In this document: positions 3,600 through 16,744 of the stretch, piece after piece
Position numbering within the stretch: the first letter of the stretch is position 1
How the letters are laid out: every line of letters starts with the position of its first letter
IMG/VR virus record: IMGVR_UViG_2617270976_000015
Location: 1-16,744 of that record
DNA: 16,744 nucleotides
Strand: one strand, 5' to 3'
DNA from: a virus
Lineage: Duplodnaviria; Heunggongvirae; Uroviricota; Caudoviricetes
Notes under the pieces: model-generated
The model's database searches: none
Seen by the model: only the letters and a program-made list of their open reading frames with translations
Told to the model about the DNA's origin: nothing
Made by a program: the position numbers and the translations under genes

Positions 3600-3745
3600 C
3601 ATTCATAGTGCAGGGTCAAATCATTCCCACTCAATTATTTACGATAACCATAACCAATTGAGTGATAACATTTTTCCAAATCTCAATTTTTCCCGTACCG
3701 TTTTATATACCGTCACCGGAAATCAGTACCGTGAAAAATGCCATG

Positions 3746-4228
3746 CTATCTGGTCAGGGTGTCGTACTGTTTTTCGCAGACTCTTCCGGCTTCGGATGCC
3801 CGGTCAGCATACTCTGCCAGTTGTCTATTTCTCTCGAGAGATTTGCTGAACACGTCGGAAAGCAAAACTCCGGTGTCTGCGGCTGACGACCCAGCGCCGA
3901 CAATGGCGTTATAGTGCCTGAGCTGCTCACGGATGGCAACGAGCTGTTGCTGCAACCGGCCAGCGCGAGCGGCAGCATCAAGAGCATCATTGCGCGCCTG
4001 GTCGATCCTCTGCTGCGCTTCACGTTCATTAGTCACTTTCTCCTGTTCGTAGTGCTGACGAACTATCTCATCTTCAGCTTTGCGGTCTTTCTTCGCCTGC
4101 GCATACCCGGCATCGTACTGACGACTGCCGTGTGCATTCCAGGCTACAACTCCTGATATGACCAGAACAGCAAGCATCGCCATGATAACCAACTGTTTCC
4201 AGTATGCTTTTGCGAATGCCCAGATCAT
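3746..4228 (-). CDS. Rz-like i-spanin
   Basis: N-terminal TM helix followed by a charged coiled-coil body; directly after the endolysin gene (start ATG overlaps the endolysin stop at 4225-4228); contains the embedded Rz1-like ORF. Confidence 0.7.
3754..4029 (-). CDS. Rz1-like o-spanin lipoprotein embedded in the +1 frame of Rz
   Basis: Track ORF lies entirely inside Rz in another frame; signal peptide with lipobox LALAGCS and a Pro/Ser-rich mature part. The true start may be the internal Met at about 3990. Confidence 0.6.
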   Translation of the reverse strand: MNVKRSRGSTRRAMMLLMLPLALAGCSNSSLPSVSSSGTITPLSALGRQPQTPEFCFPTCSANLSREIDNWQSMLTGHPKPEESAKNSTTP

Positions 4229-4854
4229 ACCGCCAGCACCTTACTGGCAGTGATGTACCGCGCGCGCCGGTCGTCGATGCCGTTCCGGCCACCATTGATA
4301 ATCAGAGTTACACGTGCAATATCGCCGGTATACTTCATGCATCCTTTGCTGGCGAAGAACCACGCCGCGCTACGAGCCGCATATTCGTCCTGCGCCAGCA
4401 GTTCAGGGCTCTCCAGCAGGTCAACCTTCAGGCCGTTTCCGCAATCACGATAGTTATTCAAACCGGTAATCTGGATAAGTCCGCGCCCTCGGTAATTCCA
4501 GCCATCACCAGGGGCATTGTTCCCCATGCGTTTGCTGTACACCAGATTGGCGATCGCACGCTGGCGCTCCAGAGGCAGAGACTTCTCATATGCTTTTCGT
4601 CCCAGCGTGCTGGCCTGGTCCGGCGTGATGCGTCCGGCACGGATAAACCCGGACAGTCCATTAACGCTGTAGTTGAAGTTTTCCTGTAACCGGGTAAATC
4701 CTCCGGACTCATGCCCGACCTGCGCGATAAACATCGCCTGGTCATCTGGTTTGATAATGCCAAACTCATTCATGGCAGCAGTGATATGCAGAAACCAGCG
4801 TGCGGCCAGCGCCTCGCTAATACCAGCAGCTCGCTGGAATTGTTTAATCTCCAT
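4225..4854 (-). CDS. endolysin, glycoside hydrolase family 19 (class I chitinase-like) type
   Basis: Start chosen at the internal ATG 4854 ([20 protein letters not shown]...) with GAGGT upstream; the longer track ORF (to 5019) would overlap the upstream gene. Motif [22 protein letters not shown] is recalled as the GH19 phage-lysin signature. Confidence 0.8.
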
Positions 4855-5152
4855 GTTTAGACCTCGATACTTTGAAAATTTGAACGACGTTACCGCGCGT
4901 TTTAATAACCGCAGCGAGCATGACAGCGTTGATAATGACCTCAGATAAATCCACAGCCATTGGCGTGCGTAACCAGATTGCATAGGCGACACGAACAGGA
5001 ATACTGGCCGCAGCAACAATCAGGAAATAAGCAAGCCACCCTCCCCATCTTCGGTGTTGTGACCCGTTACGCCGGAATGTGACAACGCGAATTGCTATGC
5101 CAGTACAAATAACTGCATTGGTGATAAGAAAAAAAAGCTCATACGTTGCCAT
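4844..5152 (-). CDS. holin-like / lysis-associated membrane protein (about 3 TM)
   Basis: 102-aa hydrophobic protein; GGGAGA RBS; start overlaps the upstream holin stop and its stop overlaps the endolysin start (translational coupling typical of lysis cassettes). Confidence 0.55.
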
Positions 5153-5543
5153 CGTCTTTTCTCCCCGGAATTAACTCACGTGGATTATCGGAACGGTGAT
5201 AGAGCCAGATGCCAATTCGTACTGCGACGATTGCTGACACGAATGCGCCAGCAGAGAAAACAACCCCTTTCTCGAAAGAGTCCTGCGTGATAGTAGGGAT
5301 CAGGCTAGCTACGCCTATAAGAATTGATGCTGCTGGTTTGTAGAAAAGAAGCCCACAGAGAAAGCTAAGCATCGACAAGAGTACGCGACGACTAATTGGG
5401 TACTCCACCGCAGAGGTAACAAAAATCACCGCTCCTGACAAAGACCCCAACGCTACTTCTGGAGGTACTCCTGCTATCACCGCAGCTAGAGAACCAAGAC
5501 TAAGCCATTGATTTAATGTTTCACTGGTTAGTTGAACTGACAT
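5139..5543 (-). CDS. holin-like membrane protein with possible dual start (GTG 5552 / ATG 5543)
   Basis: 3-4 predicted TM helices; first gene of the lysis cassette; N-terminus M-V-S-M gives two in-frame starts as in dual-start holin/antiholin genes; GGTGG upstream of ATG 5543. Confidence 0.6.
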   Translation of the reverse strand: MSVQLTSETLNQWLSLGSLAAVIAGVPPEVALGSLSGAVIFVTSAVEYPISRRVLLSMLSFLCGLLFYKPAASILIGVASLIPTITQDSFEKGVVFSAGAFVSAIVAVRIGIWLYHRSDNPRELIPGRKDDGNV

Positions 5544-5958
5544 AGAAACCACCGTTTACTGTGCATAAAGACCCACCTTAGTTGGTGAGTCCATCATACA
5601 CAATTAATACATATATGGTTTAATTGAAATCCCCAAAAACATTCTGAATAGGTGAGGTGTTTTCTGGCTCCATAGCTATGACGTGGCTTTTGATGCCTAA
5701 CTTTATAAGGTGCCACGACAATGTGATAGGTACATAGGATTCAGTTACCAATGCAAAGCTTTGTGTGTCTCAGTTTTGTCTCATGCCAACCCAGTAGAAT
5801 CAATCTACTTAATCTCTCTGCAGTGAATATTTTGTTTGCACGCAATTGCACATGATGAACTGGCGCTTATGATAATTTCTGACGGTGATCTGATGGGAGT
5901 GAAAGTGCGGCTATCTGATGATACAATGCTCTTCAAAATAAACAGTTAGGTGATTTTT

Positions 5959-7002
5959 ATGTTGGTCAAAGATGCGCTAAAAAGGGATAACAATAACCTT
6001 GACTTAATACGTATTTTTTGTGCAATTTCTGTAATATTTGCCCATTCATATTATCTTGCAAATTCTGATGGAGCCCAGGAGCCGGTTCAGTCTGTTTTCA
6101 CATTTACATATACTGGTTCCATTGCTGTAAAAATATTTTTCTTTATTAGCGGAATGCTTGTAACTAATAGTTTATTAACAACGCGAAACATACCACACTT
6201 TATTTCATCTAGATTTTTTAGAATATTCCCCGCATTCATTTTTGTTTTATTATTCGCGACATTCATTGTTGGACCATTACTTACAACGCATTCAATGACA
6301 TCTTATTTAAAAGATACGCTGACGTACAGCTATCTATTTAAAAGCTCATATTTGGATATGCAATTTTTTCTTCCTGGTGTTTTTGAGGAAAATATATATA
6401 AAAGCTCAGTTAATGGTTCTTTATGGACAATACCATATGAAGTTGCATCTTATGTCGTGCTCCTAGCATGCTACATGATAACTCAGAGCAGAGGAAGAAT
6501 AATGCCTAGCATCATATGCTTATCAATAATAGCGCTTCCAGTATTGGGATGGAACAAATTAATTTTTATAAATAACGATAATGCAGATGTGTTTTTAATG
6601 GCTCCATGCTTTGCTCTTGGCGCATTGTATGCTATAAACAAGGACAAAATATACATTTCACTACATGCACCAATAGGATTTGCAATATTATATAATTTTG
6701 TGTCAGAACCAACACTCAAGCATATGCTTTTTTATTTTTGCGCATGTACATTTTTCGTATATTTATCAACAACAAAAATAATAAAATCAATAAGAATAAA
6801 ACATGATGTATCATATGGCGTTTACTTGTGGGGCTTTTTAATACAGCAGATAACATTCAGGTTATTACCTGATATAAATCTGTACTTAAATCAAGTTTTA
6901 TGCATAGCACTATCACTTATTGCTGGACTGATATCATTTATTGCGATAGAAAAACCAGCAATGGATATTGGGAAAAAGATATCAAACAAATTCAGATATT
7001 AG
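5959..7002 (+). CDS. acyltransferase family 3 integral membrane protein (Oac/OafA-like O-antigen acetyltransferase, membrane domain only)
   Basis: ATG 5959 with AGGTGA 7 nt upstream (track ORF starts at GTG 5950). About 10 TM helices; N-terminal RIFCAISVIFAHS resembles the conserved Arg/His motif of AT3 acyltransferases. Extremely AT-rich codon usage, which looks horizontally acquired. Confidence 0.75.
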   Translation: MLVKDALKRDNNNLDLIRIFCAISVIFAHSYYLANSDGAQEPVQSVFTFTYTGSIAVKIFFFISGMLVTNSLLTTRNIPHFISSRFFRIFPAFIFVLLFATFIVGPLLTTHSMTSYLKDTLTYSYLFKSSYLDMQFFLPGVFEENIYKSSVNGSLWTIPYEVASYVVLLACYMITQSRGRIMPSIICLSIIALPVLGWNKLIFINNDNADVFLMAPCFALGALYAINKDKIYISLHAPIGFAILYNFVSEPTLKHMLFYFCACTFFVYLSTTKIIKSIRIKHDVSYGVYLWGFLIQQITFRLLPDINLYLNQVLCIALSLIAGLISFIAIEKPAMDIGKKISNKFRY

Positions 7003-7004
7003 AT

Positions 7005-7030
7005 AAAAAGGGGCTTTCAGCCCCTTTTTT
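7005..7030. terminator. bidirectional rho-independent terminator between the convergent acyltransferase and beta-helix genes
   Basis: AAAAAGGGGCT-TTC-AGCCCCTTTTTTTT: GC stem 7010-7015 / 7019-7024 flanked by an A-run and a T-run. Confidence 0.8.
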
Positions 7031-8014
7031 TTACGTGGTAGTTGCGGATACCTTCCATTCACCAGTTGATACGTATGTCCACTTCCACGGTCCGGTAGAA
7101 ACCGGACCAAGCAATTCCCACTTGGTGCCAAACGGGAAATTAGTTGTATCTCCCGTGGGTGGTGATACTGATAGAACCGTTATATATCCTGACTCAAGTC
7201 TGCATAATGCAGTCCATGATGAGTTTCCGGTTATACTATAGGTGCCGCCTGAATCAACCTTGTTGATCCAGCTCTGCCCACTCCCCCATCTAATAGAATC
7301 AGTGGTGTTGTCGGGAATTACCGCACCATTAAAATTTGCAGTTGCATCATTAAGATATATGTATTTGCTAGATGAGACTCCAGAGTAACCAGAAAAATGA
7401 GATGAAACCAATGAGATGAAACACGATTCCAGAGATACAGCTTCAACTCCTCCATCATGATGATTAACCACTCTAAATGCAGTTACGTTAATTCGACTAC
7501 CATTTATATCAAATATTTTACCAGTGCCTTCTTCGCTTCCGCATCCAGATAGATTTACTCCAGTACAATCTTTAAATTTATAGCCAGTACCATTAACGAA
7601 GTCAGCAGCCAAACAAGTCAGGCTGCTATATGTAATGTTATTAAAATCATATGCAACACCTGAACATGTTTTCACATAAATATTCTTTAAATTATATGTG
7701 GTTCCACCTGCTTCGATTTTAACTCCAGTAACGACATCCTGAATAGTAATGTTTTCCCATGTCTGCAACCAGCTATCACTAGTGCGATAACCGGTTTTCA
7801 CCCTATGAATATACAGGTCCTGAAGGCGCACATTGTAACTGATAGCGCTATATATCCCGTAATCACAAGGATTGGGCGCAGTATTTAGAATACTCAATCC
7901 AATTATTCTGGTGCTTCTTGTTTGTTTCCCGCTTAAATCACCTGATGTGTCACTATCCATATCTACCGCAACAATAAAGTCTTTGGAGAAGCTGTGTGGT
8001 ACACCCTGCCACAT
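7031..8014 (-). CDS. right-handed beta-helix (pectate-lyase-fold) protein resembling a tailspike/depolymerase receptor-binding domain; possibly a remnant
   Basis: Ser/Thr/Gly/Asn-rich sequence with repetitive short beta-strand motifs (for example NLKNIYVKTCSGVAYDFNNITYSS, GTGKIFDINGSRINV). No signal peptide, weak RBS; its frame is open for only 17 codons upstream of the Met and overlaps the upstream ORF. Confidence 0.45.
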   Translation of the reverse strand: MWQGVPHSFSKDFIVAVDMDSDTSGDLSGKQTRSTRIIGLSILNTAPNPCDYGIYSAISYNVRLQDLYIHRVKTGYRTSDSWLQTWENITIQDVVTGVKIEAGGTTYNLKNIYVKTCSGVAYDFNNITYSSLTCLAADFVNGTGYKFKDCTGVNLSGCGSEEGTGKIFDINGSRINVTAFRVVNHHDGGVEAVSLESCFISLVSSHFSGYSGVSSSKYIYLNDATANFNGAVIPDNTTDSIRWGSGQSWINKVDSGGTYSITGNSSWTALCRLESGYITVLSVSPPTGDTTNFPFGTKWELLGPVSTGPWKWTYVSTGEWKVSATTT

Positions 8015-8382
8015 GCGATCCGGAACGGTTTTAATATCGTTACGCGCTGTTTTGCAGCATCCAGTTCAATCGACAATTTTTCCAACTGCTCTTTATGCTT
8101 TTTATATTCCTGATATGCGTGCCAGGACTGACCTTTGCGCACACTATCAGTAATATCAGTAATCTGTTCTGGTGTTAGCGTGGTCAGTGGCTGTGCTGGG
8201 AAAATCAGCACTTTCCCGGAATCCCAATCAAAACCAGCGTGAATTGACTGAACCTCAACTGAGGGTGTTGAACCAATGCTGCCAGGCGAATAAACAACGA
8301 TCGTTACATCCATATCGCGACGATGGCTGTGGTTGTTGGACAAAATACGATTCACCAACTCAGAAAATTTGGAGAATTTCAT
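7963..8382 (-). CDS. hypothetical phage protein (139 aa) with C-terminal coiled-coil; may be the N-terminal part of a frameshifted tailspike-like gene
   Basis: ORF with ATG at 8382; 52-nt overlap in a different frame with the beta-helix ORF. No motif I recognise. Confidence 0.4.
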   Translation of the reverse strand: MKFSKFSELVNRILSNNHSHRRDMDVTIVVYSPGSIGSTPSVEVQSIHAGFDWDSGKVLIFPAQPLTTLTPEQITDITDSVRKGQSWHAYQEYKKHKEQLEKLSIELDAAKQRVTILKPFRIACGRVYHTASPKTLLLR

Positions 8383-8390
8383 GCGGAGCC

Positions 8391-8801
8391 TCAGTATGTA
8401 AAATAGACAGTTGCCACGCCGTTATAGTGATCAAACGATACGGCATTTACTTCATAGCTGGCGGGGAGCTTCGATCCGAGAACGTATCCGGGCCACTTTT
8501 TCCATGGAATTTCTCTGCGCTCACTATCGCCATATACCGTACATCCCAGTGAGCCTACAGCTTCACCAGAACGTGTGCCGCACGTTATGAATCCAAGATT
8601 TTGCTTACTGGCCTTAATAGCGATCGATGGAGTACTAACCGATGCATTGGCTGCTCTATTCGCCTGTTGGCTTGCAATAGCTGCGGAATTAGCAGCTGCA
8701 ACAGCAGCAGTGGTCGCGGCGGTAGAGGCAACAATAGCTGCTGAAGCATGCACTTGTTGGATATTCACCAACAATGCCGCCACAAAAATCATCTTCTTCA
8801 C
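8391..8801 (-). CDS. secreted protein of unknown function (signal peptide, Ala-rich linker, C-terminal domain with two Cys)
   Basis: GTG start at 8801 with AAGGAG 7 nt upstream, overlapping the upstream stop (GTGA). N-terminus MKKMIFVAALLVNIQQVHA looks like a Sec signal peptide. Confidence 0.55.
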   Translation of the reverse strand: MKKMIFVAALLVNIQQVHASAAIVASTAATTAAVAAANSAAIASQQANRAANASVSTPSIAIKASKQNLGFITCGTRSGEAVGSLGCTVYGDSERREIPWKKWPGYVLGSKLPASYEVNAVSFDHYNGVATVYFTY

Positions 8802-9442
8802 TTGTCAGCTCCTTTGCGAATCTGTTCCGCCCATTCTTCAAGGGATTTCTCCGCATATTCACCGGACAGGCCATCAATCGGGTGCGGTTCATTAGCCAAC
8901 TCTTCTTTCGCTGACAGAATCATGCGCGTAACGTCGAAAACTTCACGTAAAGACTTATTGATAAATCCGTGATTGAACGCAGCAGCAAGACGGCTTGCGG
9001 TATAGTTAATCCCCTCGTTGCGAGCCTCCGCCCGAATTTCAGCCGTGAAGGCGTCGGTTGCTGACATAGACAGTGCTGATTTAGCATCAAACATGAGCGA
9101 CGCTGCGGGATTGATTGACTTCTCCTCTGGAGAAATACCGCTCATTGCAAATTGGTTTATCATGCGTTCAACCACTTCACGCAATGCCGCATTCTCCGCC
9201 GCCAGCGCCGAAAACTTCTCGTGTGCCAACTTAACAGCTGCATCAGCCTGCTTAATTGACTCAATCGCTTTCTGCTGGTCTTCGGCCATCGCATTAGCAC
9301 GCACCAGTTGCACTTCCAGTTGCGTTGCCAAATCGCTGATCAGCTTTGCCACACTGCGCATATCAACGGCACCACATTCTGCTTTCAGTTCCGAAGCCAT
9401 CTCATGCCCGGCGGCAACTAACCCTTTGATATTACTTTCCAT
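8798..9442 (-). CDS. hypothetical cytoplasmic helical protein (214 aa), nin-position gene
   Basis: ATG 9442 with GAGGG RBS; predicted helical with Ala/Glu/Lys-rich coiled-coil-like segments; no Cys-rich zinc-finger as in lambda Q. Confidence 0.5.
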   Translation of the reverse strand: MESNIKGLVAAGHEMASELKAECGAVDMRSVAKLISDLATQLEVQLVRANAMAEDQQKAIESIKQADAAVKLAHEKFSALAAENAALREVVERMINQFAMSGISPEEKSINPAASLMFDAKSALSMSATDAFTAEIRAEARNEGINYTASRLAAAFNHGFINKSLREVFDVTRMILSAKEELANEPHPIDGLSGEYAEKSLEEWAEQIRKGADK

Positions 9443-9503
9443 CTTTACCCTCGCTTATCCACATAACTTATTGATTGCATTGATAACTAAAAAGATCGTC
9501 GAT

Positions 9504-9848
9504 TCAGAACTCTTCGATGTTCCAGCCACCACCTGCTTTCTTTGGTTTAACCGTTACCCCGATGATTCGGAACGGATACTGATCTGCGGCGACTTTGGTT
9601 TTCACCCTGGCGTCGTCGGTCCAGAAACCTTTCACTTCGTGCAGTTCCATCTCGCCGGTGGCGAGCATCACAGCAAAATCGGGCGTATAGAACGTGTTGT
9701 CAGCTAACCGCAGCTTGATACCCTCAAATCGATACCAGACGATTTCTCCTGCACGTTTACGCAACTCAAGGTGCTGGCAATACGCAGATTCTGTTTTGTT
9801 CATCTGGCCTGTTTTGAGTCGACCAAGAGCCTGTATCTGTTTTCTCAT
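9504..9848 (-). CDS. small PD-(D/E)XK-motif protein (DUF1064-like), putative nuclease
   Basis: ATG 9848; motifs YTPDFAV and ELHEVKG fit a PD...(D/E)xK nuclease core; position just after the replication genes. Family name is from memory. Confidence 0.5.
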   Translation of the reverse strand: MRKQIQALGRLKTGQMNKTESAYCQHLELRKRAGEIVWYRFEGIKLRLADNTFYTPDFAVMLATGEMELHEVKGFWTDDARVKTKVAADQYPFRIIGVTVKPKKAGGGWNIEEF

Positions 9849-9851
9849 AAT

Positions 9852-9929
9852 TTACCCCTGAGGTAATTAAAAACCACATAAGACACGAAATCAATATGGT
9901 TTAGAATATTTTGTTACCCAGCAGGTAAC
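9852..9929 (-). promoter_or_regulatory. operator-promoter-operator unit: two TTACC-N5-GGTAA palindromes (9852-9866, 9913-9929) flanking a leftward -35 TTGATT / -10 TTTAAT
   Basis: Both palindromes match the operator consensus found at the repressor gene perfectly; their centres are 62 bp apart, the same spacing as the pL-like pair at 12957-13033. The -35/-10 reading is approximate. Confidence 0.5.
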
Positions 9930-9965
9930 TATCAAGGCGTAAAAAAATGCGCTATCGCGCTGGTA

Positions 9966-10766
9966 TTACTTGATAAATCCTGCCGCCTTTCCCCGCCTGT
10001 ATTCCTCCATCAGCCACTGTGCCGGTGTTATTCCCCCCAATGTGGCGGCGTTAGGCATACACCCGAAACTTCGCCCTGGTGGATGGTAAACGTCTCTCCC
10101 TGTGTCCGGAGGCGTACTCATGGGTTCTGGCTTTGCCTGTATGCTGATCACCGGATCGGGTATCTGCTGTCCGGAAGCTACCTTTTTCGCCCAATCATCG
10201 AGCAGCCTGCGCGCGTGTTTCTCAACCTCAATCTCGCTAAACTGGCGCTGATACATTGCACGGCGGGTATCACATACGACCCAGTACATAACCGGATGTC
10301 GCCACGGGAATCTTTCGGGACCACCAGGATATAAACTTTTTTCCTTGCTGTACCGGTGAAACTCCGCCATCACATCGTCAATGGTGACGCCAAGAACCAT
10401 CTTGCTGTCTTTACACCACTTGATGAATTGCCCTGGCGACGGCCAGAACGGAGATTCACTGGCGCGGGCGTGGCGCATACCAGCAGAAACCTGTTCACGG
10501 GTTCGGATCCCCCCTTCGGCAAACGCAGCAATCCACTGCTGTTTTGCAGCAACTTCCTGCTCTGGAGTCTTCAGGTTGGTTACTACTGCCGCCGGAAACA
10601 GTTGTTTCAGCTGTTTGAAAAGGGCATCAACAAGCCTCTCTGCTGACATGTTCACCACATTGTCATTGTTGACGTACTGATGCTCATAACCTGACATGCG
10701 AGAAAGGGCTTCTCCGTCACGGTTTTGTATCGCGGTAAAAACGTTGTTCACAAGAAATCCTCCCAC
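9966..10766 (-). CDS. lambda P-like replication protein (DnaB helicase loader)
   Basis: Conserved block WIAAFAEGGIRTREQVSAGMRHARASESPFWPSPGQFIKWC parallels lambda P (…NGITTMEQVNAGMRVARRQNRPFLPSPGQFVAWC) as I recall it. Start taken as the GTG at 10766, overlapping the O-like stop; the start is uncertain. Confidence 0.8.
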   Translation of the reverse strand: MGGFLVNNVFTAIQNRDGEALSRMSGYEHQYVNNDNVVNMSAERLVDALFKQLKQLFPAAVVTNLKTPEQEVAAKQQWIAAFAEGGIRTREQVSAGMRHARASESPFWPSPGQFIKWCKDSKMVLGVTIDDVMAEFHRYSKEKSLYPGGPERFPWRHPVMYWVVCDTRRAMYQRQFSEIEVEKHARRLLDDWAKKVASGQQIPDPVISIQAKPEPMSTPPDTGRDVYHPPGRSFGCMPNAATLGGITPAQWLMEEYRRGKAAGFIK

Positions 10767-11563
10767 GCTTCAGGGCTGTTCCAGTGCGGAACGTTGTTAT
10801 CAGGTAATGTTGATTGCTTCTGTCTGCTAATCTGCAGCCGCCTTGCCAGCTTCTGCTCCCACTGTGCCTGATGGTATGCCTTACCCTCAGCCATCCAGTA
10901 AATTCTGAACTCTGCAAGCTCCTGTGCCGTTGGCAGACTGTCCAGGTAGATCCCCTGCAATGAGCTTTTCCGAAGAAAGTCATCTGATGGCTGCCATTGT
11001 TCATGCATGACAAATTTGCCTAATTGCCCTGGCCCACCAGGAGGAACAAAGTTATTCATCACGGCGTTGTTTGCGCCGGGGTCATGAGGCACAGAATCCC
11101 CGCTTTTTGTCCTGCTCTCCCTCTCTTGGTTAAATGACTGGTTATATGACTGGTTCTGGATCCCGTTTTTGGGATCATTCAACATCCCGTTTTTGGGATC
11201 ATTCAACATCCCGTTTTTGGGTATATTCCCGTTTTCGGTAACATTACCGTTTTCGGGTTCATTACCCCCTTCCCGGTTGCCTTTAATGTTTCCGTTTTTG
11301 GTTATATTAAGAGAGAAAACCCGCACTCTTTTCGTCGCACCCTTTCTCTCTCCGGTATCTGAAATAAGCCCCATTTTCATGAGCGATATAAGCCCGGCCT
11401 GCACGGTTTTTTTATTCAGGCAAGTGTCTTTAACGAGGCGTTCTATGCTGGGGTAGCAGAGGTTATATTCATCGGCTCTGTCAGCCATCGAGAGCAGTAT
11501 GAGCTTTAATGACGAGCTACCTGGATCTGTCTCCCAGGCCCAATCTGTTGCATGTCTGCTCAT
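10748..11563 (-). CDS. lambda O-like replication initiator (N-terminal HTH domain, internal repeat/iteron-encoding linker, C-terminal domain)
   Basis: ATG 11563 with GGAG RBS; N-terminal LKLILLSMADRADEYNLCYPSIERLVKDTCLNKKTVQAGLISLMKMGLI looks like a helix-turn-helix; the mid-gene tandem repeats encode NGMLNDPKNGMLNDPKNG; placed directly before the P-like gene. Confidence 0.7.
   Translation of the reverse strand: MSRHATDWAWETDPGSSSLKLILLSMADRADEYNLCYPSIERLVKDTCLNKKTVQAGLISLMKMGLISDTGERKGATKRVRVFSLNITKNGNIKGNREGGNEPENGNVTENGNIPKNGMLNDPKNGMLNDPKNGIQNQSYNQSFNQERESRTKSGDSVPHDPGANNAVMNNFVPPGGPGQLGKFVMHEQWQPSDDFLRKSSLQGIYLDSLPTAQELAEFRIYWMAEGKAYHQAQWEQKLARRLQISRQKQSTLPDNNVPHWNSPEAWEDFL
11161..11308. 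repeat. array of about 7 direct repeats (18-24 bp, core CCGTTTT(T)GG) inside the O-like gene; candidate replication-origin iterons
   Basis: Two perfect 24-bp units TCCCGTTTTTGGGATCATTCAACA at 11161-11184 and 11185-11208, then degenerate units to about 11308; a 10-bp direct repeat ATGACTGGTT x2 follows at 11133-11154. Confidence 0.65.
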
Positions 11564-11578
11564 GATTAATCTCCGCTA

Positions 11579-11779
11579 TCAGCTTGAATGTTGTGGGGAG
11601 GAATTAATCATGATCTGCTTAATCTCTGCCCTGATGCGACGGTTTGATTCCATAGTGCACTCAACACAGTGTCCGTTGTAAACCCAGCGTTCACTGTCAT
11701 GTCCGTGCTTACATGGTTTTCCGGTGTAGTAGCGTTTAAGTCCGCGCTTTGCGGCATCAATACGTGTAATAATTTCCAT
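11579..11779 (-). CDS. small zinc-ribbon-like protein at the cII position
   Basis: Cys/His cluster GKPCKHGHDSERWVYNGHCVEC; stop is 15 nt upstream of the O-like start. Start ambiguous: ATG 11779 chosen; the track ORF extends to a TTG at 11842. Confidence 0.4.
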   Translation of the reverse strand: MEIITRIDAAKRGLKRYYTGKPCKHGHDSERWVYNGHCVECTMESNRRIRAEIKQIMINSSPQHSS

Positions 11780-11888
11780 GGTAAGCCCTGTTATTAGTAT
11801 TGGGATTACGGTCATTTTGTGCTGACACAAAAAAAAGATCAACCAGATTTGGTTTTTTATTACCTTTGAGGTACGAATAGATATGAAA

Positions 11889-11908
11889 AGACCGCCGGAT
11901 GGCGGTCT
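11889..11908 (-). terminator. GC-rich hairpin after the cro-like gene (tR1-position terminator candidate)
   Basis: Perfect 8-bp stem AGACCGCC / GGCGGTCT with a 4-nt loop, 22 nt after the cro-like stop; followed on the minus strand by UUUCAUAUCUAUU, a weak U-tract. Confidence 0.4.
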
Positions 11909-11929
11909 ACAGAGGGTTGTGGATGGATA

Positions 11930-12160
11930 TCATGAGTAGAAGAAGTATGCCAGTTCTGCTTTTGAGCGCAGCCATTGTCTTGTTTTACAGGCTTTAAAAA
12001 GCCCATTCATCAATACTTTACCTGGCATTTTGCGCTTACCTGTTAAGTGAGTCTGGATATAATGACTCGTCGTTCCGGCTTCCTGTGCGAAGGCTTCACG
12101 CTCATCCGGAGTAAGTGCAAGCCAGTGCTTTTTGAAATCGAAATGTCCGTTATCGCTCAT
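11930..12160 (-). CDS. Cro-like small HTH regulator
   Basis: 76-aa protein divergent from the repressor gene across a 154-bp operator region; segment EAFAQEAGTTSHYIQTHLTGKRK resembles the Cro/CI-type HTH pattern; first gene of the cro - cII-position - O - P series. Confidence 0.5.
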   Translation of the reverse strand: MSDNGHFDFKKHWLALTPDEREAFAQEAGTTSHYIQTHLTGKRKMPGKVLMNGLFKACKTRQWLRSKAELAYFFYS

Positions 12161-12314
12161 AGCTATTGCCTGATATTTATTTCAGATAATAAATATTCAC
12201 CCATAAGGTAACAAAAATCAAGGATAGTTACCTGTGGGGTGCATTTACCTATTGGGTAATATTGCTTTAAATTGAATCATCTACTGATTCATATATGAGG
12301 CGATTTTCCAGAAA
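12161..12314. promoter_or_regulatory. divergent promoter/operator region (OR-like) between the cro-like and repressor genes
   Basis: Contains TCACC-cataa-GGTAA (12197-12211), half-site GTTACC (12227-12232) and perfect TTACC-tattg-GGTAA (12245-12259); AT-rich promoter-like sequence on both strands. Confidence 0.6.
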
Positions 12315-12899
12315 ATGAAAAGTATCCAGGACGTCCGCAGGCAAAATCTCAACGACTTGATCGACCGTGAATTCAATGGTGTTCAGACGCGGATGGCTGA
12401 AAAACTTGGAACTCAGGCAAATCTGGTAAACCGCTGGGCTCTTGGCAAGAAGGTTATCGGCGACCAGGTTGCGCGAAAAATTGAAGCTGCCGCCAATAAA
12501 CCCCGTAACTGGCTTGATATCGATCGCTCGCTTTCTCAGGAAGGTTTTCAGCCTGTCGGCCCAAGCGACATTGGTCAGCTGGCGGCTCACAACCTGGAAC
12601 GCTGGATGAGCGAAAGCCGCGACCTTTCAACACAGGGAAAACTTCACCGCGCATCCGGCGTCGCCCAGGTGACAATCAGCCGCCTGTTAAACAATGAGGT
12701 CAGCGTTTCCATTTCCACCCTGGAGAATGTTGCATCTGCATTCGGGCGTCACGGATATGAACTACTGATTCACCCGCACGACCCTGCAACTATCAACTAT
12801 GACCGCTCGCGCTACGCATTGTTACCTGAAACCGAGAAAGCAAAGATCGAAAGTTACATTGAATTTGTCATCAACCAGAACGAAAAAAACAAACAATAA
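12315..12899 (+). CDS. prophage repressor (CI-like function), HTH protein without a recognisable S24 autopeptidase domain
   Basis: N-terminal HTH-like segment GVQTRMAEKLGTQANLVNRWALGKK and a second HTH-like segment ASGVAQVTISRLLNNEVSVSISTLENVASAF; divergent from the cro-like gene; flanked by the palindromic operators; I do not see the Ser/Lys motifs of LexA/CI-type C-terminal domains. Confidence 0.65.
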   Translation: MKSIQDVRRQNLNDLIDREFNGVQTRMAEKLGTQANLVNRWALGKKVIGDQVARKIEAAANKPRNWLDIDRSLSQEGFQPVGPSDIGQLAAHNLERWMSESRDLSTQGKLHRASGVAQVTISRLLNNEVSVSISTLENVASAFGRHGYELLIHPHDPATINYDRSRYALLPETEKAKIESYIEFVINQNEKNKQ

Positions 12900-12919
12900 A
12901 ATAATACTTTTCAGTAAGT

Positions 12920-12943
12920 AAGCCGCCTTCTGGTGGCTTTTTT
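12920..12943 (+). terminator. rho-independent terminator after the repressor gene
   Basis: Stem AAGCCGCC / GGTGGCTT (one G-U pair) with loop TTCT, followed by TTTTTT. Confidence 0.65.
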
Positions 12944-12956
12944 ATTGCCTATACTA

Positions 12957-13033
12957 TTACCTAATGGGTAATTTTTTTAACTCATATCTATTGACACCAA
13001 ACCAAATACGCATAATTATTACCTCAACGGTAA
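12957..13033 (+). promoter_or_regulatory. pL-like early promoter flanked by two operators (TTACC-taatg-GGTAA 12957-12971; TTACC-tcaac-GGTAA 13019-13033), -35 TTGACA at 12991-12996
   Basis: Two perfect 15-bp palindromes 62 bp apart bracketing a consensus -35 hexamer and an AT-rich -10 region, directly upstream of the first early ORF (13053). Confidence 0.6.
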
Positions 13034-13052
13034 CAGACCGAGGTAACAAGTT

Positions 13053-13205
13053 ATGCAGTGGAAAATCATCAACGGTTGGTACTGCGTTACTGCATGCGGA
13101 TTCATGAGCTGGAAGTTCCGCACCTTACAGGAAGGCATTAAGTGGGCTTTCGTCAGCAAAGAAGCTCGCGATGTGGCCAACGATAACGAGATATGGGAGG
13201 GCTGA
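13053..13205 (+). CDS. small Trp-rich protein (50 aa), first gene of the pL-like operon
   Basis: Not in the ORF track (under 60 aa). ATG 13053 with GAGGT 8 nt upstream; stop TGA immediately precedes the next gene's ATG; translation MQWKIINGWYCVTACGFMSWKFRTLQEGIKWAFVSKEARDVANDNEIWEG. Confidence 0.45.
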   Translation: MQWKIINGWYCVTACGFMSWKFRTLQEGIKWAFVSKEARDVANDNEIWEG

Positions 13206-13207
13206 TA

Positions 13208-13507
13208 ATGAACGTTAATCAGCAGAAAAATCTTCAAAAAATCATGCTGGTATTCGACAAGGACTACCGCCTGTCAGAACAGCTATATGACCGACAAGTT
13301 GAACTGATTGAGAGCATCCGACTTCATCAAATGTCCTCAACTTTTGACGCTGTAACAGGCAAAGGAGTTCGCCAGGAAGTGCTGGAGGCAGCTAAAGACA
13401 GCCCTGAGTTCGAAGAACTTATGGATGCCTACCGGCGCGAGGCAATGGCAATTATCGCCCGCTGGGATCTGGCGGATCAGCTTGATGGACAGAGGGACGC
13501 GGCATGA
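13208..13507 (+). CDS. hypothetical early protein (about 99 aa) in the position occupied by gam in lambda
   Basis: ATG 13208 with GGGAGG 8 nt upstream (track ORF starts at 13193); acidic helical protein; stop overlaps the start of the exonuclease gene (ATGA). Confidence 0.5.
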   Translation: MNVNQQKNLQKIMLVFDKDYRLSEQLYDRQVELIESIRLHQMSSTFDAVTGKGVRQEVLEAAKDSPEFEELMDAYRREAMAIIARWDLADQLDGQRDAA

Positions 13508-14325
13508 ATCCGGGAATTTATTTCGATATCAGCAACGAAGACTACCACGCCGGTGACGGCGTGAGTAAGTCGCAACTGGACATGGTTGCCAAGAATCCGG
13601 CGCTTCTTAAATGGGTTCAGGCAGCACCAGAAGACGAAGAGAAAAAGTCTGCACTGGCTATGGGAACCGCATTGCACTGTCTGCTTCTGGAGCCTGGAGA
13701 GTTCGACAAACGCTTCATTGTTTCACCGAAATTCGATCGTCGGACGAAACAAGGTAAAGCTGACGAAGAGGCATTTCTTCGTGATGTGGCGGATATGGGG
13801 ATTACGGTACTTGATGCCGAGCAGTGGCGGAAACTGGAGCTGATGCGTGATAGCGCAATAGCTCATCCGGCGGCACGCTGGATGTTGGAAGCACCTGGTT
13901 ACTGCGAAGCATCAATGTACTGGAACGATGAAGAGACGGGTGAGTTGTGCCGAATTCGTCCAGACAAATGGCTGAACGAGCACAACGTGATCGTCGACGT
14001 GAAAAAGGTTGCAGATATTGACCGTTTTGCACGCCACATCGAGGAATTCCGCTACCACGTGCAGGACGCAATGTACCGCGAAGGCGCAATGAGGGTTACT
14101 GGTCAGCCGCATGGTTTTTTCTTTCTTGCCGTGAGCGAAAGCATTGATTGTGGTCGGTATCCGGTACGCGTGTTCGAGCTGGATGCGCCAGATGTCGATG
14201 CCGGGCACGCTCTGTTCCGCCGGGATCTGAATACCTATCACGAATGCCGCATCAACGATGAATGGGGCGGAGTGGAAATTATTAAACGCCCTGACTGGGC
14301 ACGTAAACAGGATATGTACGTATGA
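13504..14325 (+). CDS. PD-(D/E)XK-family recombination exonuclease (exonuclease VIII-like / DUF3799-type), partner of the annealing protein
   Basis: Motif region RIRPDKW...IVDVKK fits a D...(D/E)xK nuclease core; translationally coupled to the downstream Bet/RecT-like gene. Does not resemble lambda Exo as I recall it. Confidence 0.6.
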   Translation: MNPGIYFDISNEDYHAGDGVSKSQLDMVAKNPALLKWVQAAPEDEEKKSALAMGTALHCLLLEPGEFDKRFIVSPKFDRRTKQGKADEEAFLRDVADMGITVLDAEQWRKLELMRDSAIAHPAARWMLEAPGYCEASMYWNDEETGELCRIRPDKWLNEHNVIVDVKKVADIDRFARHIEEFRYHVQDAMYREGAMRVTGQPHGFFFLAVSESIDCGRYPVRVFELDAPDVDAGHALFRRDLNTYHECRINDEWGGVEIIKRPDWARKQDMYV

Positions 14326-15203
14326 GCAATGATATCGCAATCACATCACAACCAGGCGCAACTGTAGGCACTGCTGCGGCAATATTCAGCCCCGAGGGCA
14401 TGAATCAACTGGTTCGTTTCGCGGAGTTGATGTCACAAAGCAAAGCGACTGTACCGAAACATCTTGAAGGCAAACCTGCCGATTGTCTGGCGGTGACCAT
14501 GCAGGCGGCACAGTGGGGAATGAACCCTTTCGCCGTGGCGCAGAAAACGCATGTGGTAAACGGAACGTTAGGCTACGAAGCACAGTTGGTAAACGCGGTC
14601 GTATCCTCTTCCAGCCTGCTAGCGACACGCCTGAATTATCGCTGGAGCGGTGACTGGTCGAATGTTAACGGCAAAACAGATAAATCACCGAATCTGACGG
14701 TAACTGTGTCAGCAGTTCTTAAAGGAGAAGCAGAACCCCGTGAGCTTACCATCAGTATGGCGCAAGCCGGAGTGCGTAACTCTCCATTGTGGGAACAGGA
14801 TCCGCGTCAGCAACTTGCCTATCTTTGCACGAAACGATGGGCTCGCCTGCACGCTCCTGATGTACTTCTCGGTGTTTACACACCAGACGAATTACAGGAA
14901 ACGGCACCGCGCGTTGAGCGAGACATTACTCCGCAAACGACCACTGCTGCGGGAATGAACAGTCTGATCAACGCTAAACCAGCGAAAAAGCCTGATGAGC
15001 AAACGCGTAAAGCGGATAGCCGTGATCCAGAAGAAATGCTGATGGCCTTTACCAGCGCAGCGATGAATTACAGCACTGTCTCCGAACTGGATAAGGCTTA
15101 CAAATACATTGCACAAAAACTTTCAGATGATGACGAACTGCTGGCAAAAGCCACCGACGTTTACAGCGTTCGTCGGGAAGAATTAAACGAAACATCTATG
15201 TAA
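14322..15203 (+). CDS. single-strand annealing protein of the Bet/RecT (Red-beta) family
   Basis: Segments ADCLAVTMQAAQWGMNPF and ETAPRVERDITPQTT parallel lambda Bet (DAQFIALLIVANQYGLNPW, TAERQPERDITPVNDET) as I recall it. Confidence 0.75.
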   Translation: MSNDIAITSQPGATVGTAAAIFSPEGMNQLVRFAELMSQSKATVPKHLEGKPADCLAVTMQAAQWGMNPFAVAQKTHVVNGTLGYEAQLVNAVVSSSSLLATRLNYRWSGDWSNVNGKTDKSPNLTVTVSAVLKGEAEPRELTISMAQAGVRNSPLWEQDPRQQLAYLCTKRWARLHAPDVLLGVYTPDELQETAPRVERDITPQTTTAAGMNSLINAKPAKKPDEQTRKADSRDPEEMLMAFTSAAMNYSTVSELDKAYKYIAQKLSDDDELLAKATDVYSVRREELNETSM

Positions 15204-15252
15204 CCACCACCGCGGCGCCACGCGCGCCGCACTGCAACCAAGAGAGGTATTT

Positions 15253-15501
15253 ATGAAAGGTGCATTAGGTAAGAAGGAACTCCTGGCGGTGGTGCCACTG
15301 TCATGGAGCACTATCGACCGTATGGAGCGCGCAGGGGAATTTCCTAAACGCTGGTATATCACCGATAAACGCTGCGCATGGAACCGTGATGAAGTTGAGC
15401 GTTGGCTTGATGAACGTCAGGCAGCAAGCCCGGCAGAGTTCCAGGGTAAAAAACCTCCTGTTCAGCAACGTGTATATCGTCCCGTGAGCAACGCGGCATG
15501 A
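15253..15501 (+). CDS. AlpA-family HTH DNA-binding protein (prophage regulatory / excisionase-like)
   Basis: 82 aa; pattern LSWSTIDRMERAGEFPKRWYITDKRCAWNRDEVERWL matches the AlpA/Xis-type winged-helix signature (STIYR...G.FP......W...EV..W); AGAGAGG RBS. Confidence 0.65.
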   Translation: MKGALGKKELLAVVPLSWSTIDRMERAGEFPKRWYITDKRCAWNRDEVERWLDERQAASPAEFQGKKPPVQQRVYRPVSNAA

Positions 15502-15610
15502 GTGTGCTGCTAAGGCACTGGAGCAAATGGTCAGGATGGTACTTATTCCTGGCCTCTGTTTCAGCATGGCTTTATCTGCTGGCATTAATTTTCAGAGAGG
15601 GTTGGATTAA

Positions 15611-15910
15611 GTGAGAAAGTTAAGCCGACTTGAAAAATATCACATGAACAAGGTTTCAATGCGCAGTCCGTCAAAGATTGTCGCCGTTACTCCTGCGGCG
15701 ATAGAGATCGAAAAACGCGCGATTGAAAGAGAGAAAAAAGGGCAGTTCCGCATTGCCGCTCACCTTTGGCTTCAGTGTATGGATGTTGCTTCTGGTGATG
15801 TTGAGCGTGCAAGGATCGCGGTTCGCAGGGACCAATGTATCACAAAAGGTAACGGCCTTCGCCGTGGCGACTATAGCGGCATAGGATGTTGTGGGGTGGT
15901 TTATGACTAA
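15611..15910 (+). CDS. PerC-like small transcriptional regulator (start uncertain: GTG 15611, ATG 15644 or ATG 15659)
   Basis: Core RIAAHLWLQCMDVASGDVERARIAVRRDQC resembles the PerC-family pattern; recollection-based. Confidence 0.4.
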   Translation: MRKLSRLEKYHMNKVSMRSPSKIVAVTPAAIEIEKRAIEREKKGQFRIAAHLWLQCMDVASGDVERARIAVRRDQCITKGNGLRRGDYSGIGCCGVVYD

Positions 15911-16553
15911 GAAATACACACTAATCTATGCAGATCCCCCCTGGGTATACCGGGACAAAGCCGCAGATGGTAATCGCGGTGCCGGTTTTAAATATCCGGT
16001 TATGAGTGTGCTGGATATCTGCCGCCTTCCTGTGTGGGATTTGGCCGATGAAAACTGTCTGTTGGCCATGTGGTGGGTGCCAACACAACCACTCGAAGCA
16101 CTAAAAGTTGTTGAAGCCTGGGGATTCCGTCTGATGACCATGAAGGGCTTCACGTGGATAAAATGTGGTAGTCGACAACCAGATAAACTGGTTATGGGTA
16201 TGGGACACATGACTCGCGGCAATAGTGAAGATTGCCTGTTTGCGGTAAAGGGAAAACTACCTACGCGCATTAATGCAGGGATCGTTCAGTCATTTACCGC
16301 ACCGCGGCTTGAGCATTCAAGAAAACCAGATATCGTTCGTGAAAAACTTGTGCAATTGTTAGGCGATGTTTCTCGCATTGAACTGTTCGCCCGCCAGTCG
16401 TCTCATGGCTTCGATGTTTGGGGTAATCAGTGCGAAGACCCGGCCGTGCAACTACACCCAGGATACGCGTTGGATATTGGCGGATTAACAAATTCATTCA
16501 GCAATGCTCCGCTGTCACCAACAGACAACCAGGGGCGGGAGCGTGCAGCATGA
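15903..16553 (+). CDS. MT-A70 family DNA N6-adenine methyltransferase
   Basis: N-terminal YADPPW (the DPPW catalytic motif) right after the ATG at 15903 (track ORF starts at GTG 15891); about 216 aa, the usual size for phage MT-A70 methylases. Confidence 0.8.
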   Translation: MTKKYTLIYADPPWVYRDKAADGNRGAGFKYPVMSVLDICRLPVWDLADENCLLAMWWVPTQPLEALKVVEAWGFRLMTMKGFTWIKCGSRQPDKLVMGMGHMTRGNSEDCLFAVKGKLPTRINAGIVQSFTAPRLEHSRKPDIVREKLVQLLGDVSRIELFARQSSHGFDVWGNQCEDPAVQLHPGYALDIGGLTNSFSNAPLSPTDNQGRERAA

Positions 16554-16744
16554 ACAGGGCATCACCAGCAGATTTAAGGAAATGCCTTGAAACTGCAAAC
16601 ATGCTTGCACACAGCGGGATCAGGTTTGTTCCTGTTCCCGCTGTCACTGATGCTGAATTTGCAACACTGTCAGCAATATTCGCAGACAAAATTGAATCAC
16701 TGGCAGCAGAAGCCGAGATGGAAGAAAATCAGCAGAATAATTAA
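16550..16744 (+). CDS. hypothetical small acidic phage protein
   Basis: ATG 16550 overlaps the methyltransferase stop (ATGA); 64 aa, ends with a TAA at the window edge; the longer track ORF from 16430 lies inside the methyltransferase gene in another frame. Confidence 0.45.
   Translation: MNRASPADLRKCLETANMLAHSGIRFVPVPAVTDAEFATLSAIFADKIESLAAEAEMEENQQNN

Follow-up and report, generated by a model that had tools for sequence, protein, structure and literature searches.

How can a phage repressor that lacks a recognizable autocleavage domain be released from its operators after DNA damage? This question is raised by a 194-amino acid (aa) protein encoded within a stretch of viral DNA of 16,744 nucleotides, referred to as the window. 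The original prediction described the protein as a repressor with an N-terminal helix-turn-helix (HTH), a second HTH-like segment and no S24 peptidase features, assigned it to the Gifsy type, and proposed that it is inactivated by a small LexA-controlled antirepressor encoded elsewhere. We conclude, with a probability of about 85%, that it is the immunity repressor of a phiV10/epsilon15-like podovirus and the orthologue of SPC32H Rep, a repressor inactivated by the antirepressor Ant, and that this copy has been orphaned by a deletion. The open reading frame (ORF), rep, is intact, with an ATG start, 194 codons and a stop, and the gene call of the source assembly agrees (194 aa at 5116-5700 of contig record L011). 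Compared with phiV10, ZX5 and strain AST205, rep differs at 12-16 nucleotides, every one of them synonymous, which indicates a real gene under strong purifying selection. The gene and its parts are as follows.

12315-12899, + strand: rep, 194-aa immunity repressor, assigned by homology to PDB 5D50_A and identity to phiV10 gp40 and ZX5 ORF21
Rep residues ~1-75: N-terminal HTH DNA-binding domain
Rep residues ~96-155: second HTH_3-like domain
Rep residues after the second HTH_3-like domain: C-terminal tetramerisation and Ant-binding segment, by homology
12920-12939, + strand: intrinsic terminator 3' of rep, an 8-bp stem (5 GC pairs) followed by a T-run

Both predicted HTH segments are recovered by Pfam, the second as an HTH_3 match at residues 106-147 (E 1.2e-9, in two stretches) and the first as a weaker YdaS/DUF739-type HTH at residues 21-61, where the YdaS match falls below the cut-off. 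The region upstream of rep carries a poorly placed ribosome-binding site (GAGG, 14 nt upstream of the ATG), and a sigma-70 scan of 12260-12314 gave no convincing promoter. A terminator is annotated in the phiV10 record at the position equivalent to 12920-12939. Residues 106-192 also show a sub-threshold NCBIfam match to RstR, the repressor of CTXphi (E 7.7e-4; score 19.7 bits, cut-off 80). RstR is likewise inactivated by an antirepressor, and a distant relationship between the two proteins is possible on the basis of this match.

The identity of the protein was established by similarity searches. Using phmmer, Rep was aligned end to end with the chain named 'Repressor' in PDB entry 5D50 (5D50_A; residues 1-190 against 2-197, E 4e-42), and a PDB sequence search matched residues 89-190 to 5D4Z (E 4e-20). 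The former structure is the Rep-Ant complex of Salmonella phage SPC32H (Kim & Ryu 2013; Kim et al. 2016) and the latter a C-terminal fragment of the same Rep, so that the full-length homology includes the part responsible for tetramerisation and Ant binding. A tblastn search of 50,697 phage records returned 36 full-length homologues, all from the genus Uetakevirus, of which 13 are 100% identical at the aa level, including phiV10 gp40 and vB_EcoP_ZX5 (ZX5) ORF21. ORF43 of phiv142-3 shows the same complete identity, and the immunity regions of phiV10, ZX5 and phiv142-3 are ~98% identical to that of the window at the nucleotide level. The Reps of SPC32H and epsilon15 share 42% aa identity with the window protein. 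For SPC32H, identity peaks N-terminally (52% over residues 1-75, with the motif NLVNRW conserved) and is only 30-46% in the middle and C-terminal parts. Overexpression of ZX5 ORF21 lowered endolysin transcripts by 99.99% and holin transcripts by 99.97% and abolished free phage (PMC9782041). The repressor protein, its operators, the antirepressor and the LexA control are already described for Uetakevirus, and the identical repressor is already present in several sequenced phages.

The genomic setting of rep is that of SPC32H-type Reps: it lies in an immunity region between recET and the replication genes, diverges from a cro-like gene and is accompanied by palindromic operators over early promoters. 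The motif TTACC-N5-GGTAA occurs 16 times in the window at up to 2 mismatches (5.5 expected; 0 of 200 shuffles contained as many), and its 5 exact copies are all intergenic and located in the early region. The operator sites and the elements next to them are listed below.

9852-9866 and 9914-9928: second operator pair with 62-bp spacing, flanked by the lambda-P-like replication gene and DUF1064
11860-11874: single operator-like site, TTACC-N5-GGTAC, located between the cro terminator and the start of the 66-aa phrog_1081 gene
11889-11908, - strand: cro terminator
11930-12160, - strand: cro-like regulator, 76 aa, divergent from rep (phrog_35 transcriptional repressor, E 5.6e-13; syntenic with phiV10 p41)
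12214-12209 (-35) and 12191-12186 (-10), - strand: rightward (cro) promoter predicted by the sigma-70 scan
12197-12211: OR site 1, TCACC-N5-GGTAA, between rep and the cro-like gene
12228-12242: OR site 2, degenerate, between rep and the cro-like gene
12245-12259: OR site 3, perfect TTACC-N5-GGTAA, between rep and the cro-like gene
12957-12971 and 13019-13033, + strand: OL/PL, two perfect operators 62 bp apart centre to centre, just after the rep terminator
12991 (-35) to 13019 (end of -10): predicted PL, near-consensus TTGACA-17-AATTAT, bracketed by the OL operators

OR site 1 overlaps the -35 element and the spacer of the predicted cro promoter, and the OR spacing of 17 and 30/31 bp is common to the window, phiV10, ZX5, SPC32H and epsilon15. 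The same four phages contain the 62-bp operator pairs, and these sites are labeled as repressor binding sites in the RefSeq record of epsilon15. Motif statistics, position and the epsilon15 annotation together lead us to infer that the TTACC-N5-GGTAA palindromes are the Rep operators. By analogy with the published tetramer model, each 62-bp pair may be bridged by a single Rep tetramer. PL is predicted to drive the leftward early operon that starts at 13053 and encodes RecE, RecT, an Xis-like protein, a PerC-like protein and a methylase. The single site at 11860-11874 has counterparts at 33112 in phiV10 and 14207 in ZX5. The phrog_1081 gene next to it occupies the cII position (11579-11842, - strand); its likely start is the ATG at 11779, yielding a 66-aa product rich in Cys and His (C-x-H-G-H ... 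C-x-x-C). The recE-like (273 aa) and recT (293 aa) genes at 13504-15203 are separate and overlapping, as in ZX5; phiV10 is annotated with a single fused RecE-RecT ORF, and the alignment of the window with phiV10 has a gap at 14599-14778.

The antirepressor half of the circuit is described for SPC32H, as summarised in three later papers. In the review PMC7380047, which cites Kim & Ryu 2013, LexA self-cleavage leads to production of an antirepressor that inhibits the repressor through protein-protein contact. SPC32H Rep binds DNA as a tetramer in which the partners of each DNA-binding pair belong to separate dimers, and this tetramer is broken when tetrameric Ant binds two Rep dimers (PMC9638917). 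Tetramerisation and Ant binding are both mediated by the C-terminal domain of Rep, whose tetramerisation fold is p53-like (PMC9986798). SPC32H Ant has 86 aa, and its counterpart in phiV10 is gp24 (85 aa, annotated as hypothetical), which matches 5D50_E, 'Anti-repressor protein', with an E of 3e-46. The neighboring gp23, annotated as a Bro-N 'antirepressor', was rejected as the SPC32H Ant homologue, its match to 5D50_E being limited to 32 aa at E 0.34. Ant homologues accompany the full-length Rep in 35 of those 36 phage records, the exception being BP9, a 138-kb record. Of 5426 complete E. coli genomes surveyed, 537 contain rep and 529 contain ant together with its promoter; the two are typically separated by 27-29 kb. 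Ant is 84-88% identical between E. coli and Salmonella phages (88% between SPC32H and the intact E. coli relatives), whereas their Reps share only 42%.

In intact relatives ant adjoins the tailspike gene, and a perfect LexA box, CTGT-N8-ACAG, starts 37 nt upstream of its start codon in phiV10, ZX5, SPC32H, epsilon15, Tyrion and BUCT554, with conserved arms and a variable spacer; in two Klebsiella phages the box has 1 mismatch. Whole-genome scans of phiV10, SPC32H and ZX5 with a position weight matrix (PWM) identified this box as a single outlier (25.6-27.9 bits, with the next site at ≤11.8). Rep, Ant and the single LexA box thus travel tightly together, so that copies without ant are easy to recognize. 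A non-cleavable repressor induced through a small LexA-controlled antirepressor, as originally proposed, is supported by this co-occurrence and by homology to the characterized SPC32H system.

Several further features of these relatives should be noted. The Bro-N protein ZX5 ORF4 (ZX5 1078-1773, - strand) has a C-terminal domain that shares 44% identity with SPC32H-type Ant across 72 aa (E 3e-16). In phiV10 (19551-20230, - strand) a frameshift distributes the equivalent domain over gp23 and gp22. These phages thus encode two Ant-domain proteins, and only the small one is preceded by a LexA box. A Rep-type operator, TTACC-N5-GGTAA, is located ~45 bp upstream of the ant LexA box in every relative examined, with additional copies before the terminase, lysis and integrase genes. 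The ant-tailspike intergenic sites are located at:

~20877 in phiV10 (record L001)
~20013 in record L003
~2423 in ZX5 (record L004)
300-316 in record L005

Based on these positions, Rep may directly control many promoters, possibly including that of ant.

No LexA box could be found in the window. An exact CTGT-N8-ACAG is absent, copies with 1 mismatch occur at chance level (5 observed, 5.3 expected), and the best site in a scan with a 20-nt SOS-box PWM, an approximate matrix trained on boxes from the literature, scores 10.4 bits (median best of shuffled sequences, 10.7; weakest training box, 13.4). The prediction that the window holds no convincing LexA box is thereby confirmed. The proposal that the antirepressor lies elsewhere stands for the intact relatives, and at this locus its loss by deletion is the better description: tblastn with phiV10 Ant and Bro gave nothing in the window (E>3) or in 18 kb of the source contig, and the segment that would encode them has been deleted. 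The cognate ant and its LexA box, present in the lineage, are therefore absent here, an absence that bears on the completeness of the circuit and not on the identity of the protein.

The structure of the locus is consistent with this loss. The window is 100% identical to contig JNQT01000014.1 (GCA_000704325.1), and its left ~3.5 kb are host chromosome, comprising an IS1 end, a truncated pdeF, yfgG, yfgH and yfgI, as judged from the annotated E. coli locus, Pfam matches and the genes called on the source contig. The IS1 end (1-331) abuts pdeF (327-1601), whose remaining ORF of 424 aa retains only the MASE1 sensor domain, so that this c-di-GMP phosphodiesterase appears to have been truncated by the IS1 insertion. 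The IS1 part is also the reason why every E. coli genome matched the window. The prophage begins next to yfgI at an att core identical to the attP/attB reported for phiV10, epsilon15 and ZX5, which integrate at the guaA 3' end (PMC9782041). From there rightward it encodes Rz, endolysin, two holin-like proteins, an O-acetyltransferase, a tailspike fragment and several early genes, followed by DUF1064, lambda-P-like and DnaT-like initiator genes, the 66-aa gene, the cro-like gene, rep and two small genes, and finally recE-like, recT, AlpA-like, PerC-like and MT-A70 methylase genes. The integrase is located directly beyond the right end of the window. Scans of the window for tRNA genes and Rfam families were negative. 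What remains of the prophage is a ~14-kb stretch lying between guaA/int and yfgI, while phiV10, ZX5 and phiv142-3 are complete, inducible phages of ~39 kb that contain ant. The features marking its end and the deletion are:

3619-3635, - strand: att core ATTGAGTGGGAATGATT, exact match, prophage end next to yfgI
7031-8044 (ORF 7031-8014), - strand: remnant encoding the tailspike C-terminus, joined to an early gene at ~8041-8044
7963-8382: early gene phrog_6026, fused to the tailspike remnant

In an alignment with phiV10, 3619-5623 (lysis cassette) and 8798-16744 (early region) are covered, with no match between 5623 and 8798. Homology to phrog_6026 ends at ~8041-8044 (positions 342-345 of the 7700-8400 query), which marks the deletion junction. 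On its other side, ORF 7031-8014 had no phage-family match; its closest relatives, at 46% identity across 325 aa, are Ackermannviridae tail proteins from Salmonella phages, which identifies it as the C-terminal, receptor-binding part of a tailspike. The two junction points are ~25 kb apart in intact relatives, where the intervening segment holds the rest of the early genes, the genes for terminase, every virion protein and the Bro-N protein, ant preceded by the LexA box, and the tailspike gene's 5' part. As ant was removed by this deletion, the window Rep is orphaned. None of the complete E. coli genomes contains the junction. In strain AST205 the site is occupied by a remnant with its own, different deletion, in which a full tail-fibre gene is joined to a truncated P gene, again without ant. 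The virion genes and ant are gone from both of these independently deleted remnants, whereas rep, cro, the genes for replication, recET, xis and int survive in each, together with the lysis cassette and an O-antigen acetyltransferase gene. At the nucleotide level, neither the O-acetyltransferase gene (5950-7002) nor the tailspike fragment of the window is matched in phiV10, no complete E. coli genome matches the fragment, and both regions differ from those of ZX5 and phiv142-3 as well. Judged from these comparisons, 5623-8043 looks like a mosaic receptor-binding and serotype-conversion module.

Three other accounts of the protein itself have to be weighed against an Ant-regulated immunity repressor. 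RecA-stimulated self-cleavage through a cryptic or highly divergent catalytic domain would make Rep resemble lambda cI, P22 C2 and LexA. The features held in common with these proteins are an N-terminal HTH, a divergent cro-type partner and multipartite operators; those setting them apart from Rep are an S24 domain, an Ala-Gly site and a Ser/Lys dyad region. Pfam gave no Peptidase_S24 match at E≤1 for the whole protein and none even at E≤10 for residues 82-194 searched alone, in line with the original reading, and neither Ala-Gly nor Cys-Gly dipeptides, the linker cleavage sites of S24-type repressors, occur anywhere in Rep. The whole C-terminal half aligns with the non-peptidase fold of 5D4Z, a helical HTH-plus-tetramerisation fragment, leaving no space for a β-rich S24 domain of ~120 aa, and the lineage retains a dedicated LexA-controlled Ant, so that self-cleavage is scarcely credible. 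Equally hard to sustain is the view that rep encodes an HTH antitoxin or other housekeeping regulator. Some records use the names 'VapI antidote', given to rep in one of them, and 'TreR-like', and NCBIfam returns weak matches to the HTH regions of HigA, HipB and TreR, all far below cut-offs. Against this, rep and a cro-like gene diverge within an early region of lambda-like layout, where palindromic operators cover PR and PL. The gene has no toxin partner next to it and encodes an orthologue of a biochemically proven repressor, and the identical ZX5 protein silences lytic genes (PMC9782041). The assignment to the Gifsy type, although very improbable as well, captures the regulatory logic. That logic is shared by the Gifsy systems with the CI/Tum pair of phage 186 and the CB/AntC pair of N15. 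GfoR, GtgR and GfhR of Gifsy-1, -2 and -3 are non-cleavable repressors inactivated through binding of a LexA-controlled antirepressor encoded outside the immunity region (PMC3121763), and the N-terminal HTH of Rep has its sub-cut-off Pfam match to the YdaS family, which originates from the Rac immunity region. However, BLASTP against RacR and DicA, both counted by Lemire et al. 2011 among the GfoR/GtgR group (PMC3121763), gave chance alignments only (E>4). Members of that group are short (~135-160 aa) and homologous to the N-terminal domain of lambda cI. Gifsy repressors are single-domain proteins of ~136 aa (PMC3121763) that act as dimers and form A2B2 complexes, while Rep is a three-part protein of 194 aa from a podovirus genome and belongs to the SPC32H Rep family, whose tetramer is dismantled by tetrameric Ant (PMC9638917). 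In sequence family and architecture the Gifsy repressors are thus unrelated to Rep, and the epsilon15/SPC32H type (Uetakevirus) replaces the Gifsy label.

A further alternative concerns the state of the locus rather than the nature of the protein, namely that the remnant is still SOS-inducible because Rep is inactivated in trans, either by Ant of a co-resident or superinfecting Uetakevirus or by a Bro-N/Ant-domain fusion, comparable to the crosstalk of Gifsy and Fels prophages. The strong conservation of Ant relative to Rep would favor this, as would the presence of two rep or two ant copies in some E. coli genomes. Trans-acting antirepressors are documented in Salmonella (PMC3121763), and ZX5 ORF4, with its Ant-like C-terminal domain, lowered lysogeny when overexpressed in a test as 'anti-repressor' (PMC9782041). 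The window and the 18 kb of source contig contain no Ant or Bro homologue, and we consider inducibility in trans unlikely, if less so than the three accounts above. It would modify the main explanation without replacing it.

An Ant-regulated immunity repressor, orphaned by deletion, suggests the following model. The N-terminal HTH domains of a Rep tetramer would, by homology, bind the 15-bp TTACC-N5-GGTAA palindromes and occupy OR over the cro promoter, the 62-bp pairs around PL and a third early promoter, and further promoters. As Rep has no S24 domain of the LexA/cI type, its self-cleavage could not be triggered by RecA, and the SOS signal would reach it indirectly, through LexA and then Ant, unlike in lambda cI, P22 C2 and LexA itself. 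In intact phages, DNA damage would lead to cleavage of host LexA, thus freeing the sole LexA box of the phage genome and allowing expression of the ~85-aa ant beside the tailspike gene. Tetrameric Ant would then bind the Rep C-terminal domains and split the tetramer into dimers that leave the DNA. In the window copy, Rep would be an orphaned lock that only Ant supplied in trans could inactivate.

Non-cleavage and Ant sensitivity would carry over to the window protein by analogy with its 42%-identical SPC32H homologue. The two share full-length homology and domain order, synteny of the immunity region and the operator motif with its spacings, and the LexA box of intact E. coli relatives is at the same -37 position as in SPC32H. 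They differ in their middle and C-terminal parts and in that SPC32H retains its ant partner; the experimental record for the E. coli protein consists of the ZX5 overexpression. With ant deleted, the window copy of rep is predicted to be non-inducible. Orphaned Rep most likely silences the surviving replication, recET and lysis genes and most likely confers immunity to homoimmune phages. One could speculate that Rep was retained by selection and not by accident, making the remnant a domesticated immunity and serotype-conversion island, perhaps even a satellite that a helper Uetakevirus, co-resident or incoming, derepresses in trans through its near-identical Ant during the SOS response; we regard this as improbable.

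The only local novelty is the loss of ant from a prophage remnant, a common prophage fate, and beyond correct annotation the importance of the locus is little. Annotation should call the gene an Ant-regulated immunity repressor of the SPC32H/phiV10 type instead of 'VapI antidote' or a generic HTH protein, and should mark the locus as a defective Uetakevirus remnant lacking ant. Phages of the phiV10 type are used for O157 typing and for reporter-phage detection. The strain carrying this remnant is probably immune to them, and no phage release would be expected from the locus upon SOS induction.
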